Below the pieces are notes generated by a model. It had not been told where the DNA came from, did no database searches, and saw nothing but the letters and a program-made list of their open reading frames with translations. A stretch of 46,599 bases of DNA, taken from assembly GCA_018896835.1 (NCBI GenBank), contig JAHILS010000035.1, positions 1 to 46,599 on the forward strand, written 5' to 3'. The position numbers and the translations under genes are program-made. Of the stretch, positions 42,577 through 46,442 are shown piece after piece (the stretch's first letter is position 1; each line of letters opens with the position of its first letter). The stretch comes from Patescibacteria group bacterium. GTDB lineage: Bacteria > Patescibacteriota > Patescibacteriia > UBA9934.

Positions 42577-42653
42577 GGGCTGGTAGTTCAATTGGTTAGA
42601 GCACTGCCCTGTCACGGCAGAAGTTGCGGGTTCGAGTCCCGTCCAGCCCGCCA
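42577..42653 (+). tRNA. tRNA-Asp (anticodon GTC), CCA encoded
   Basis: Folded by hand: acceptor GGGCTGG/CCAGCCC, D arm GTTC..GAGC, anticodon stem CTGCC/GGCAG with loop CTGTCAC, T arm GCGGG-TTCGAGT-CCCGT, discriminator G, CCA. Confidence 0.95.
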
Positions 42654-42705
42654 GGACTATTTCTTATCGTGCAACCTATGTGGATAGCAAAGATAAGGAG
42701 GAGTC

Positions 42706-42744
42706 GCAATCAAAAAATCGCCACTATGGCGATTTTTTGATTGC
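42706..42744. terminator. 17-bp perfect hairpin, bidirectional terminator between tRNA-Asp and the SEC-C gene
   Basis: GCAATCAAAAAATCGCC-actat-GGCGATTTTTTGATTGC. Confidence 0.75.
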
Positions 42745-42756
42745 TACTTATCTGGA

Positions 42757-45225
42757 TTACCCCCCACAACATTTTTTGTACTTTATAGGTTTGCCGTTTG
42801 TATTCAGTGCGCCACAAGGGCACGGATCATTACGACCAATTTTTTTGCCGTCATGTCGAAAAAAGTGAACAGGAGTTTCTGTAAGCGTGTCTGTCGCGAA
42901 ATTGATCTCAAATTTTTTAAGATACTGATAATACTGCCATGCAGCATCTAACTTCAATTGTTTGTTAAGTTCTTTCTTGTCAATATCATCAAGTCGTTTG
43001 CGTAATGCTTGATGTTCAGGTGATTCATCGAGCCATTCTTTCCTTTTCTCGATCTCTCTCATTTGCTTGCAAATTTCATTAGCAGATTCTAGCTCATTGC
43101 GGTCTAAATAATATCCCTCAAGTTCTTCATGTACAGCACAATAAGCGTTGTAAATTGTTGGATAACAAGGGTCAACATCTTGTAATTTTTTCTTTTCACG
43201 TTCTTTAACCATCTTAAACGCTTCTTGCAAAATATACTCCTCCTCAGCGTAGTCAAGAACTCTATGTAATGCCTGCGCAACTGTGAAAAATGGATGTAAT
43301 TCATATTGGCGTTTATCGAGAATAGCTTGAAAAGTATTTTGCCAATTATTCTTCTTTTCAAGAATTTGACAGGTCAGTTCTACTTCGGCGAACATGCCAC
43401 TTTGGAGTCGCTTTTCGAATGCATTAGCTAGTTGCCTGGCATTTTCTCGATAACTTTCTTTCTCTACAAGAATCAAAAAGCAAGCTACGAGTGTGGCCAG
43501 ATCTCCAAAATCTCCATAAGTTTGCCAATGCTTTAAAAGTTCATCTGGTGATTCCACGATAAAACGAGAAAGTAATTCAAATTGTTTTTCCAAATCTTGC
43601 TTTCGAATCTTCTTTGCATAGACCGTTTTCTCTAGATTCTCTACCGTATCCAATAATTTATCTACATACAACAAATCAGGACACCAACGCTTAAATAAAA
43701 TATCTGCGGCGGTAAATACAAAATCTTCATCTTTTTTCGGGCCTGTATAACGAGGATAAAGCTCATGCTCAACCAAGTCATCAAGGCATATATAATCTTT
43801 TACCCACTCGTTAAATATTTGTTGATTTAAACTTATGCCAAAAGTTTCAAATTGATCAACCAACTGATCCGTTGTCCAGTTAGCCATCTCTTCAGAGTCC
43901 CAACGAAATACAGGAGCGATACCTTCTTCCTTTGCTTTTCGAAGGGAATCTCCTAATCCATGAAAAATCAAACTATCATATTCACCAGACTCCAATCTAG
44001 CTCGAATCTGGATTCCAAAATCATAATTCGGATTCATTTCTAATGCGATATCAACCATTGCCTTACCCATTGAACGCTCGCCCGCCGCAAAATGAGCAAG
44101 TGCTTTGTTAGCAAAAAGTCTATAGGGTTCAGGAGCTGTCGTTCGTTCATCTTTGAGTGATATAAAACAGTCTTTATATTCCTCCACAGCCTGCGTGTAA
44201 TCAGCCTTAGAAAAATACTGATGAGCTTGTGTATAGTTTTGATTCCATTCTGTTGGAGGTAATGGAATTTGGTCATGAATGATATCCGGTTCTCGATTAG
44301 GATCCTCCAACACTTTCTGTTGAGGCGTCTTGTTATCAAGGCGTTTTTGCGGAGTGGTACGCTGCAAATTTTGAATCACGCGCATGAATTCATCAATATC
44401 ATCTCTATCCAAACCATCAGGAAAAAGTCCAGACAGCATAGTTAGATATGTCATGCTGCATTCGTCTTCCATTTCGGAATTAATCCATTTTCTTATCAAG
44501 ATAGCATCTACCTTATCGAGAATACCTTTCTTTTTTAAAAAATCATTCAATTCTTGATCTGCAGTAATTGGATCAAGATTTAAGACATTATCTTTATCGA
44601 CAAGTTTCTTTAAGCAGCCTTCTTCTTTTGTATCGATATTTTTATTCTCATGGTTGCTGTACATTATGTTATATACATCCTTCGGAGAAATGGTTTCCTT
44701 TGACTTCAAAAAAGTTTTTCTCAAATGGTCGCCCAATTTTACTGGCAATGAGATTGTGTCAGCGCTGACTATCTCATAATGGTCACCTATTTGAACAATA
44801 CGAGAAAACATCAAGTGACCTTGAGTTAACTGATGAGTTGCACTGCGTTCCTTTACTTCATAATCCTTACCTGTTTGAAGATTCTTTAAGAGTAAACCTT
44901 TATTTATATCAATATGCAATACCTCAAACAAGCCAAATTGTGCTCTCTTTAAAGCATTTGCAACCTTGAATTCTTTCTCTGAAACAGAATCTCCGTGACC
45001 TACAATAAACTCTTCGATAATACTACGACCATTTTTCAACTTAAAGTCAAATAGTAACCACTCGTTAAACCAACCCTCAACATCTGGTCTTTCGTTTAGA
45101 TACTCAATGCAAACCAAATCTTCTTTACACTCAAAGAATTCTTTATAAGCTCTTTTAAATTCTTTTGAACTTTTCTCTGTGTAGAAATTTTCAAATATCT
45201 TTTTTAATAATTTTTTTGGAATCAT
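42757..45225 (-). CDS. 822-aa SEC-C motif protein with TPR-like helical region
   Basis: C-terminal GRNDPCPCGALNTNGKPIKYKKCCGG (SEC-C metal-binding motif). A TPR-like AHQYFSKADYTQAVEEYKDCF is present; the rest is unrecognised and mostly helical. It starts 16 nt (18 positions) after the Fic stop. Confidence 0.75.
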   Translation of the reverse strand: MIPKKLLKKIFENFYTEKSSKEFKRAYKEFFECKEDLVCIEYLNERPDVEGWFNEWLLFDFKLKNGRSIIEEFIVGHGDSVSEKEFKVANALKRAQFGLFEVLHIDINKGLLLKNLQTGKDYEVKERSATHQLTQGHLMFSRIVQIGDHYEIVSADTISLPVKLGDHLRKTFLKSKETISPKDVYNIMYSNHENKNIDTKEEGCLKKLVDKDNVLNLDPITADQELNDFLKKKGILDKVDAILIRKWINSEMEDECSMTYLTMLSGLFPDGLDRDDIDEFMRVIQNLQRTTPQKRLDNKTPQQKVLEDPNREPDIIHDQIPLPPTEWNQNYTQAHQYFSKADYTQAVEEYKDCFISLKDERTTAPEPYRLFANKALAHFAAGERSMGKAMVDIALEMNPNYDFGIQIRARLESGEYDSLIFHGLGDSLRKAKEEGIAPVFRWDSEEMANWTTDQLVDQFETFGISLNQQIFNEWVKDYICLDDLVEHELYPRYTGPKKDEDFVFTAADILFKRWCPDLLYVDKLLDTVENLEKTVYAKKIRKQDLEKQFELLSRFIVESPDELLKHWQTYGDFGDLATLVACFLILVEKESYRENARQLANAFEKRLQSGMFAEVELTCQILEKKNNWQNTFQAILDKRQYELHPFFTVAQALHRVLDYAEEEYILQEAFKMVKEREKKKLQDVDPCYPTIYNAYCAVHEELEGYYLDRNELESANEICKQMREIEKRKEWLDESPEHQALRKRLDDIDKKELNKQLKLDAAWQYYQYLKKFEINFATDTLTETPVHFFRHDGKKIGRNDPCPCGALNTNGKPIKYKKCCGG

Positions 45226-45243
45226 ATGGATTGATTTTTTTGA

Positions 45244-46296
45244 TTACATCTTTCTATACCGCGTACTGCGCCCTTGGCCAAGACGTTCGATTTTCTTGAG
45301 GCGCAGGAGGACTTCCAGTGCCTGAGAGACGGTTGGACGTGCTACGCCGGTTACCTCGACAATTTCTCGAGGAGCCGCCTCATCAACTTTGCTCAAATAG
45401 TTCCAAACCGCCAGCTGCTTAGGCGAAAGCAGTCGTTCGATGTTTTCATGAGAGAGAAGCTCGATCGCTTGCTGTACCTGTTCTTTGCAGATACTCAAGA
45501 AGAACACAAGCCATGCCTCAATATCTGGTTTGGTGGTGTTGAGTGTTTTCTGGCTTCGACGCAAGGTGAGATAATACTCCGACTTGCTTTCCTCTACCAA
45601 TTTCTCGTGAGATACGTATGGAACGTAAGCGTATCCGGCTTTAAGCATGAGCAGATTCGTAAGGATACGTGAAAGTCGACCGTTTCCGTCTTGGAACGGG
45701 TGGATGGCGAGAAATTCGACCAAGAAGTTTCCAATAATGAGTAGGGGATGATAATCGCTTGCATCCAGCGCCCAGCTTGTCCATTCAACGAGTTCTTGTG
45801 TCTGTTTCGGTGTGAGATATGCCGGCGTCGTCTCAAAGACAACACCGAGCGATTTGCCGGACTCATCAAACATCTCGACGTTGTTTTCTGTCTTTTTATA
45901 TTCACCTCGATGACGTTCGTCTTTGTCAACAAATTTTAGAAGTTCGTTGTGCAGGTATTTAACGATGCTCTCGTTGAATGGGATCTGTTTCCAGGTCTCA
46001 AAAACGTTTGAGAGGAGCTCGAAATACCCTTGTACTTCCTGCTTATCGCGATCCTTAAATTTCTGCACGGAAATCCCTTGCATGAGTTTCTCAACGTCAT
46101 CATCCGACAAAGTCGATCCTTCAATACGAATCGACGCCCCGGACGAGGTCACCAAAACAGAACGTTTGAGTCTTCCAAGCGCTTGAGGATTCAACTTAGC
46201 CCCGCCAATCCACTGGCCTTTTAAGTGGTCAATTCCATTGATTATCGACCATGTTTTTTGAGAAACATTTGCTATTCGTTTTTCTCGATTATCCAT
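45244..46296 (-). CDS. Fic/DOC family protein with N-terminal inhibitory motif and C-terminal winged-helix
   Basis: Fic motif HPFQDGNGRLSR (45667-45702). Inhibitory-helix motif S-x-x-x-E-G as SIRIEG (46117-46134). C-terminal wHTH-like PREIVEVTGVARPTVSQALEVLLRLKKIERLG. Confidence 0.88.
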   Translation of the reverse strand: MDNREKRIANVSQKTWSIINGIDHLKGQWIGGAKLNPQALGRLKRSVLVTSSGASIRIEGSTLSDDDVEKLMQGISVQKFKDRDKQEVQGYFELLSNVFETWKQIPFNESIVKYLHNELLKFVDKDERHRGEYKKTENNVEMFDESGKSLGVVFETTPAYLTPKQTQELVEWTSWALDASDYHPLLIIGNFLVEFLAIHPFQDGNGRLSRILTNLLMLKAGYAYVPYVSHEKLVEESKSEYYLTLRRSQKTLNTTKPDIEAWLVFFLSICKEQVQQAIELLSHENIERLLSPKQLAVWNYLSKVDEAAPREIVEVTGVARPTVSQALEVLLRLKKIERLGQGRSTRYRKM

Positions 46297-46417
46297 AAAG
46301 TTACATTCTAACTATATGAGATTATATACGAATAGCCTCACTTCATCAAGTTGAAGTTAACGAATATTTAAACACCTCTGCTAATATTAGCAAAAAGGCA
46401 TACGGGGCAACCCGAGT

Positions 46418-46442
46418 GGTTCGAGTCCCGTCCAGCCCGCCA
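46418..46442 (+). repeat. exact 25-nt copy of the tRNA-Asp 3' end (att-like)
   Basis: GGTTCGAGTCCCGTCCAGCCCGCCA is identical to 42629-42653. Flanking sequence is unrelated. Confidence 0.9.

Follow-up and report, generated by a model that had tools for sequence, protein, structure and literature searches.

A recombinase-less Fic cassette at a tRNA-Asp gene of an uhrbacterium and its probable place in a family of modular elements

Introduction

How does a block of DNA come to lie between two copies of a tRNA gene end when it encodes no enzyme that could have put it there? The question is raised by contig JAHILS010000035.1 of assembly GCA_018896835.1 (Patescibacteria group bacterium), the whole of which, 46,599 nt, was analysed here and is called the window. 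Near its right end, an intact tRNA-Asp gene is followed by two genes, one of them encoding a Fic protein, and by a second copy of the last 25 nt of the tRNA gene; the contig ends 157 nt further on. The source genome (G000) amounts to 839,534 bp in 100 contigs, is 96% complete, and has a GC content of 41.9%. Its host belongs to the Uhrbacteria, ultra-small members of the candidate phyla radiation (CPR, Patescibacteria), whose genomes are tiny and whose mobile DNA is little known.

A first-pass annotation of the window had offered three options for the block: a decayed island, a satellite mobilised in trans, or a cargo hotspot. We assign a probability of about 0.68 to the reading that the block (42654–46442) is an integrated non-autonomous cassette, similar to the cis-mobilisable elements (CIMEs) or to recombinase-less pseudo-cassettes of the staphylococcal cassette chromosome type (psiSCC), which likely carries defence cargo and would be moved in trans or has become stranded. 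The second and third options fit this reading better, and simple decay fits less well.

Anatomy of the repeat-bounded block

The 25-mer GGTTCGAGTCCCGTCCAGCCCGCCA occurs exactly at 42629–42653 and 46418–46442. No further match was found in the window with up to three mismatches, and none is expected in a shuffled window; genome-wide, with up to two mismatches, there are just these two copies, 3789 nt apart. The first copy forms the last 25 nt of tRNA-Asp(GTC), from T-stem position 4 through the CCA. This tRNA gene (42577–42653, plus strand; ARAGORN; Rfam tRNA, 68.5 bits) is intact, has an encoded CCA, and makes up the left boundary, or attL side. The second copy (46418–46442, plus strand), 25/25 identical and ending in CCGCCA, forms the right boundary, or attR side, and is referred to below as the core. 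The identity ends sharply, with G versus T before the copies and G versus A after them, and the earlier description of an exact duplication between unrelated flanks is thereby borne out.

Only two genes lie between the repeats, both on the minus strand. They had been described by eye as co-oriented genes of unlike GC content, and the measured values of 46.5% for the fic gene and 36.4% for the gene of the SEC-C protein are near those estimates. Neither protein contains a recombinase domain according to Pfam, NCBIfam, PADLOC, and fold searches, and the claim that the block lacks a recombinase therefore stands.

The same structure is found in two independent assemblies. Locus L040 (GCA_018895575.1) is identical to the window over 40245–46591, and locus L039 (GCA_043817975.1), from a sibling strain, is 97.6% identical across the block; a Logan contig (L086) holds a 75%-identical version. 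This recurrence argues against an assembly artefact. Copy 2 could also be the remnant of a locally duplicated tRNA-Asp gene, as the first-pass annotation had itself considered, and in genome G011, an almost full-length pseudo-tRNA-Asp does lie downstream of the true gene. Upstream of 46418, however, nothing tRNA-like was found in the window, and the sequence there, the right arm of the block, is homologous to the arms of Fic cassettes elsewhere. We regard both a duplicated tRNA gene and an artefact as very improbable.

A structured left end follows the tRNA

Rather than random island DNA, the block has a conserved structured end that takes up its first ~100 nt. Directly after the CCA lies a motif of about 55–65 nt, which we call the left end (LE); in the window, it occupies 42654–42706 on the plus strand, as identified by pattern search, folds, and a covariance model, and reads GGACTATTTCTTATCGTGCAAC...GAGTC. 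Two types were distinguished. The type-B LE of the window folds into P1 (GGACU/GAGUC), P2 (CUUAUC/GAUAAG), and an inner hairpin, and the type-A LE into P1 (GGACA/UGUCC), P2 (CUUAUCG/CGAUAGG), and a variable P3. Among 24 type-A copies, 90.6% of the cells pair, compared with 34–44% when the partners are slid, and double changes occur at seven pairs, six of them within P3.

With up to three mismatches, the first 25 nt of the motif were found in 28/162 genomes of the order, and a reversed control gave one match. The covariance model detected copies in 50/151 genomes of the order and in 0/3 other genomes of the genus; in the source genome, the copy at 42654–42711 is the only one (model R1). Across 185,579 species genomes, the exact 5' 25-mer occurs in 23 stretches, nearly all labelled Candidatus Uhrbacteria or Patescibacteria. 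A search of Rfam 15 (E up to 1) with the window and 18 loci returned tRNA matches and, besides these, sub-threshold ones that mostly overlap tRNA genes; no LE family was among them.

All LE matches inspected lie right after ...CCGCCA (CCGTCA in one variant), which belongs either to a real tRNA-Ser or tRNA-Asp gene or to a tRNA-3'-like stretch, often with a contig end nearby. In the source genome, only the tRNA-Ser genes (four) and tRNA-Asp end in CCGCCA, which would account for the choice of these tRNAs. The genome has 39 tRNA genes (ARAGORN), nearly all with an encoded 3' CCA; in most cases, a terminator consisting of an A-run, a hairpin, and a T-run lies within a few bases downstream. Because a terminator directly follows most of the other tRNA genes and the motif follows none of them, the LE belongs to the inserted DNA. 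A native tRNA trailer was ruled out on these grounds and because congeners lack the LE.

The LE is followed by a bidirectional intrinsic terminator (42702–42748; inverted repeat I1) with 22-nt arms that are 95% complementary, an A-run, and a T-run. LE and terminator have a joint fold energy of −45 kcal/mol. The terminator is predicted to close both the tRNA-LE transcript and the convergent operon of the two cargo genes.

Fic cassettes recur in other genomes

Homologues of the Fic protein with 64–80% identity are patchily distributed (22/162 genomes at 1e-60), and the majority of those examined share the block's frame of tRNA, LE, Fic, arm, and tRNA-3'-like repeat. The first-pass annotation had pointed to relatives with the same two genes and no repeat as a case that would speak against an island; none appeared, the genes being rare, patchy, and mostly within this frame.

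The full layout is present in genomes G001, G102, G148, and G119 and on the Logan contig: tRNA, LE, 0–2.5 kb of cargo, Fic on the minus strand, a homologous arm, and a core ending in CCGCCA, after which a different local terminator follows in each. In G001, which belongs to the same genus as the source genome, the cassette lies at tRNA-Ser(gga), and in G102 at tRNA-Asp. Partial layouts were also found. In G101, arm, core, and terminator lie downstream of tRNA-Ser, with no LE detected; G151 has LE, Fic, arm, and core, with the tRNA beyond the contig and the LE of a next module after the core; and G029 has tRNA, LE, and Fic, with an arm that ends short of any core. In both G119 and G151, the Fic cassette stands in tandem with modules encoding a large serine recombinase (LSR). 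The right flank in G151 was also sought within its genus; in G005, the flank lies beside metK with no tRNA there, and this comparison is uninformative for an empty site.

The cores match the adjacent tRNA at 17–21 of 25 positions in the other genomes and at 25/25 in the window lineage only. The core of G102, a member of family f2, agrees with the f1-type tRNA-Asp end at 22/25 positions and with its own tRNA-Asp at 20/25, which suggests that the core travels with the cassette. The arm and core lineages of G102 and G101 are nearly alike, though one lies at tRNA-Asp and the other at tRNA-Ser. A crossover at the common CCGCCA would fit a travelling core better than one inside a long identity block. 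Comparison of protein identities shows, furthermore, that the elements spread horizontally: Fic is 72–80% identical across families, compared with 51–58% within the family for the adjoining pyruvate kinase.

Modules with a large serine recombinase

At 13 loci, tRNA-Ser or tRNA-Asp (plus) is followed by the LE (plus), 0.1–4 kb of cargo, and an LSR gene on the minus strand. In at least eight other genomes, a Fic homologue occupies the position of the LSR. The recombinase has Resolvase, Recombinase, and Zn_ribbon_recom domains, and its best match is CcrB (1.1e-31; 110 bits against a 900-bit equivalog cut-off). Matches with E below 1e-40 occur in 61/162 genomes of the order, and more than 12 genomes, spread over different genera and families, have copies at least 92% identical in amino acid sequence. 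A subclade 68–73% identical to the LSR of G119 lies at tRNA-Asp in five genomes (G006, G037, G040, G047, and G072). By our own count, about two thirds of the genomes with the LSR clade carry the LE, compared with about one fifth of those without it, related genomes being non-independent in this count.

Near-identical LSR units are homologous from the LSR stop codon to exactly ...CACCGCCA, past which another LE (G119) or a local terminator (G029, G151) follows. The array of G119 begins after tRNA-Ser(tga) with LE, SWIM, Fic, arm, and core, continues with LE, cargo, LSR, arm, and pseudo-core and then with LE, HNH, LSR, arm, and pseudo-core, and goes on with yet another LE. These edges suggest that the elements end at CCGCCA|GGAC... 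on the left and ...CCGCCA| on the right (the bar marks the edge) and that the LSR recombines there. CCGCCA is common to all junctions; in the window, the identity extends over 25 nt. Locus L072 (G119:C6, 7423–15320), a four-module array, contains two 92%-identical LSR copies, and its inverted LE/pseudo-core pair at 15133–15319 could mediate inversion.

Within the source genome, recombinases of the relevant types amount to one Xer-type tyrosine recombinase and one distant LSR at tRNA-Glu, and no cognate recombinase is present in this assembly. The first-pass annotation had proposed a search for a tyrosine integrase whose att core matches the 25-mer; the genome's single tyrosine recombinase passes the XerA-type cut-off (252 vs 220 bits) and scores far below the cut-offs of the integron-integrase models. 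Reading the block as an integron cassette likewise finds no counterpart in IntI, attI, or attC, and the borders are tRNA-like, not attC. The distant LSR (L084, C53:1-1800) comprises 550 aa, its N-terminus cut by the contig start; its gene reads into the 3' end of tRNA-Glu(ttc), c[1613-1687], and a partial second copy of the 5' half of tRNA-Glu lies at about 1757–1787. It was considered as the cognate enzyme and rejected: identity in the catalytic domain is 35–37%, the 3' end of the gene overlaps tRNA-Glu, and what is seen there looks like a separate element integrated at tRNA-Glu.

These observations bear on a rival reading, namely an island of a tyrosine integrase with the crossover inside the 25-nt tRNA-Asp identity, decayed by later loss of the integrase. 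A repeat from the T-arm to the CCA is its textbook pattern, reportedly the class II sublocation. The attR of L039, followed there by the native trailer, suits it as well, and the intact tRNA-Asp and 72-nt pseudo-tRNA-Asp around a 3.5-kb insert in G011 suggest long identity blocks. However, inspection of more than 20 related modules showed no tyrosine integrase in or beside any of them, the genome's single tyrosine recombinase is of Xer type, and the module edges lie at CCGCCA. Moreover, one arm and core lineage stands beside tRNA-Asp in G102 and beside tRNA-Ser in G101, and its cores mismatch the adjacent tRNA; such an arrangement could not arise by crossover within a long stretch of identity. 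We consider this island unlikely. The attL/attR interpretation of the first-pass annotation is supported by L039 and can be retained; the recombinase to be sought is probably an LSR and not a tyrosine integrase.

Variation at the tRNA-Asp locus

Between L039 and the window, divergence is uneven along the locus. It amounts to 0.25% in the left flank, 0/103 in LE plus terminator, 0.7% in the DUF7986 (SEC-C protein) gene, 3.6% in Fic, 17% in the arm, and 0/25 in the core. Past the distal 25-mer, L039 continues with TGAAAAAATCAGAG...TTTTTTCA; this terminator is the one directly adjoining the intact tRNA-Asp of L086, and congeners have similar trailers. A native trailer past the distal 25-mer is what would be expected of an attR, and the sequence of L039 supports this assignment. 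With several junction states on record, the tRNA-Asp locus is a hotspot.

Could the block be immobile at present, its LE, arm, and core being functional RNA or DNA of a chromosomal tRNA-linked locus, such as a processed trailer RNA or a regulatory site for the Fic operon, with the repeat kept by selection or gene conversion? The unchanged core (0/25) beside an arm with 17% change between strains would suit such constraint, as would the RNA-like covariation of the LE, whose position allows co-transcription with the tRNA. The arm palindrome GCTAATATTAGC, too, resembles a putative binding site for the winged helix-turn-helix (wHTH) of Fic. Against this stand the patchy and group-restricted distribution, the congeners without an LE, a cross-family identity too high for vertical descent, the tandem arrays with recombinase modules, and flanks that differ between strains. 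On balance, an immobile locus is improbable.

Further observations concern the surroundings of the tRNA-Asp gene. In several genera, it lies near the pyruvate kinase gene (window 40626–42653, compared with L033, L035, L036, and L038), at a spacing that varies from 0.1 to 3.3 kb. Its orientation in G003 and G004 is inverted relative to the window, G023, and G012. The varying orientation and spacing point to recurrent rearrangement. In the congener G003, smpB, a GIY-YIG gene, infC, rpmI, and rplT lie upstream of tRNA-Asp; in the source genome, contig C91 ends within smpB, and infC, rpmI, and rplT were not found by tblastn. An unassembled gap probably adjoins the tRNA-Asp locus there.

All 32 differences between the window and L040 fall within 109 nt (40136–40244) at the 5' end of an nrdR-like gene, the other 6.3 kb being identical; they represent a short recombination tract or a strain-mixing artefact. 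The last ~900 nt of L039 past the island follow hairpins of the repetitive extragenic palindromic (REP) type, have 73% GC, and contain a proline/alanine-rich tandem repeat. This end is probably a chimeric join in the metagenome-assembled genome (MAG). Finally, locus L034 (G011:C23, 6573–10240) shows an intact tRNA-Asp with terminator, then 3.5 kb with genes for a 596-aa surface protein and a sortase-like protein, and after this insert the decayed 72-nt pseudo-tRNA-Asp followed by a type-B LE. It represents a recombinase-less insert with a much longer repeat.

A model of insertion and points against it

The reading preferred here, an integrated non-autonomous cassette, can be set out as a mechanism. 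Modular elements restricted to Uhrbacteria would take the ...CCGCCA 3' end of tRNA-Ser and tRNA-Asp genes as their insertion site. The left end of a family member consists of the LE hairpin and a terminator that replace the tRNA trailer, the middle of variable cargo, and the right end of the arm and a tRNA-3'-like core ending in CCGCCA. In the autonomous members, a reverse-oriented CcrB-like LSR lies beside the right arm; in the window member, a SoFic-like Fic takes this position, accompanied by the DUF7986 protein with its tetratricopeptide repeat (TPR) and SEC-C regions. The LSR would catalyse the crossover in or next to CCGCCA. The 25-mer may represent either the tRNA-mimicking half-site of the element or a displaced tRNA end, and the cassette may move in trans, by cis-accretion together with an LSR module, or be stranded by now. 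Two junctions are predicted: an empty attB would read tRNA-Asp followed by the TGAAAAAATCAGAG trailer, and a circular or tandem attP would read arm, 25-mer, and then GGACTATTTC.

Several points weigh against this mechanism. No LSR of the G119 clade is present in the G000 assembly, which is fragmented (96% complete, 100 contigs), and the reach for an adjacent LSR module stops at the contig end shortly past the repeat. A perfect identity of 25 nt is commoner with tyrosine integrases than with LSRs. The LSR subclade at tRNA-Asp has no right-end core within 1.5 kb upstream of the LSR in its five genomes, and the arms and cores of LSR modules have no homology to those of Fic cassettes beyond CCGCCA and a short CGACCCA string, so that recognition of both by one enzyme is hypothetical. 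Nor is the left junction uniform: between tRNA and LE lie, in L039, a 493-nt remnant that includes a degenerate core of its own and, in L086, about 190 nt of native downstream sequence in common with G016. All comparisons, moreover, rest on MAGs, and related genomes are non-independent samples.

A wider interpretation can be attached to the cassette reading, which we put forward tentatively and hold to be rather less probable than its opposite. In Uhrbacteria, CcrB-like LSRs may insert small cassettes exactly at CCGCCA and thus build tandem defence arrays comparable to integrons. The LE would be a new structured RNA that doubles as an att half, and the Fic cassette a satellite borrowing the recombinase through its tRNA-mimicking half-site. 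If so, the LE would be co-transcribed with the tRNA and could stand in for its trailer, provide a processing signal, or assist recombination as an RNA cofactor.

Right arm and right flank

The right arm (46297–46417), delimited by an alignment of five cassettes with further arms besides, contains a promoter-like site for the Fic operon from 46349 to 46321 on the minus strand, the best promoter match (10/12). The palindrome mentioned above lies at 46380–46391, and GGGGCAACCCGAGT abuts the core. The arms of Fic cassettes from different families are conserved and have in common the promoter region, a GCTAAyaTTAGC palindrome, and GGGGCRACCC. A metagenome scan with the arm 18-mer GGGGCRACCCGAGTGGTT gave 30 matches, almost all of them chance occurrences in unrelated DNA.

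The right flank (46443–46599, plus strand), characterised by sequence and fold, has three or four GC-rich hairpins without U-runs and then meets the contig end. It starts with ATTTACAATTTC and has ACAATTTC in common with the 5' end of the type-A LE. It differs from the native trailer of L039 and L086, matches none of the genome's other contigs, and an exact 38-mer of its tail is absent from the metagenome contigs. L040 extends the contig end by only ~100 nt, with a 33-nt insertion near the end of the flank. The right flank may be the start of a further insert.

The cargo genes

The gene next to the arm (45244–46296, minus strand, GC 46.5%) is the signature gene of this cassette type. It encodes a 350-aa class-II Fic AMPylase with a C-terminal wHTH (Pfam Fic and DIP2311-like_C). 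Its translation has both the active-site motif HPFQDGNGRLSR and the inhibitory motif SIRIEG, in agreement with the patterns HxFx(D/E)GNGRxxR and, in the N-terminal part, (S/T)xxxE(G/N). The protein matches the PADLOC SoFic model at 2.5e-41 over residues 43–347 of 350 and PDB 8uqu at 7.9e-35; against the NCBIfam SoFic equivalog, it reaches 54.7 bits, the cut-off being 550. Elsewhere, in other cassettes, Fic is paired with a SWIM/PDC-S62-like protein.

The second gene (42757–45225, minus strand, GC 36.4%; open reading frame with a precomputed PF25948 match) encodes an 822-aa DUF7986 protein in which an N-terminal alpha/beta domain is followed by a long alpha-solenoid/TPR-like body and, at the C-terminus, a SEC-C zinc knuckle. 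Its AlphaFold2 (AF2) model has a mean confidence (pLDDT) of 67, and its fold matches generic TPR proteins only, with query-normalised TM-scores up to 0.19. The possibility of a hidden recombinase or nuclease was rejected: the AF2 model gave TPR matches of low TM-score, and Pfam, NCBIfam, and PADLOC gave matches to the SEC-C tail only. Among 5.8 billion clusters, DUF7986 has six matches, including the near-identical copy of L039, and a full-length homologue is present in 1/60 relatives. The pairing with Fic recurs in L086; the homologue in G037 has no cassette context. Adjoining this homologue, the sole other full-length one among relatives, locus L025 (G037:C65, 2760–3260) contains a frameshifted gene for a four-helix-bundle ('23S rRNA intervening sequence') protein between inverted repeats of the GGAATTTGGAAGT type, which resemble GGATTTGGAAGTT at the contig end of the window.

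The two genes are predicted to form one operon, with its promoter in the arm and its end at the bidirectional terminator. This operon is probably a defence or addiction module.

Significance

What began as one tRNA-linked repeat leads to a family with a horizontally spreading LSR, a structured end that is not in Rfam, and interchangeable cassettes of defence type (SoFic-like Fic, SWIM, HNH, DUF7986). The island in the window is real, yet a passenger rather than an autonomous element. Well-studied serine integrases insert mostly in protein-coding genes, and an LSR acting at the CCA end of tRNA genes would, if true, be an unusual target choice for this enzyme class. The same mechanism, if true, would account for many assembly breaks at tRNA-Ser and tRNA-Asp in MAGs of Uhrbacteria, and it would provide compact pairs of recombinase and att site, with a minimal element of ~1.8 kb, that are testable as tools.

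Comparison with known systems

No description of the element family was found. In SoFic, a single gene makes up an anti-phage system (Millman et al. 2022, preprint 10.1101/2022.05.11.491447; PMC12249575). The Fic of the window resembles it in its Fic_N-type inhibitory helix, Fic core, and C-terminal wHTH. It differs in being paired with the DUF7986/SEC-C protein and in a score far under the equivalog cut-off.

As an arrangement, the block invites comparison with the tRNA-gene islands of tyrosine integrases, which are reportedly P4-like. Both have an intact tRNA at one end, a repeat of a 3'-terminal tRNA fragment at the other, and accessory cargo in between. The block differs in that it has no integrase, that related cassettes lie beside non-matching tRNAs, and that its CCGCCA edges are common only to tRNA-Ser and tRNA-Asp.

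The CIMEs of Streptococcus are said to be accreted beside integrative and conjugative elements (ICEs) at a common attachment site. Like the block, they are bounded by attL/attR-type repeats and have no recombination gene; they stand in tandem with autonomous elements at one target, the 3' end of a conserved gene, and movement would come about through the action of a co-resident recombinase on the outer sites. CIMEs depend on a tyrosine integrase in a Firmicute host, whereas here the partner would be an LSR, the target is CCGCCA of tRNA-Ser and tRNA-Asp, and the left end is a structured hairpin; in addition, the assembly of the block's own genome holds no partner.

SCCmec and the pseudo-SCC cassettes without ccr genes insert at the 3' end of rlmH/orfX by means of the large serine recombinases CcrAB. 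The likeness lies in the best score of the family LSR against CcrB, in a target that is the 3' end of a conserved gene, with direct repeats of the gene end at the borders, and in tandem composite arrays that include recombinase-less cassettes. Here, however, the target is a tRNA gene, the cassettes measure 1.3–4 kb against 20–60 kb, and the cargo is defence-like in place of resistance genes.

By analogy, the closest functional counterparts of the block would be the CIMEs and the ccr-less pseudo-SCC cassettes. What is new here is the family context, with its CcrB-like LSR, the CCGCCA target of tRNA-Ser and tRNA-Asp, a structured left end, and restriction to Uhrbacteria.

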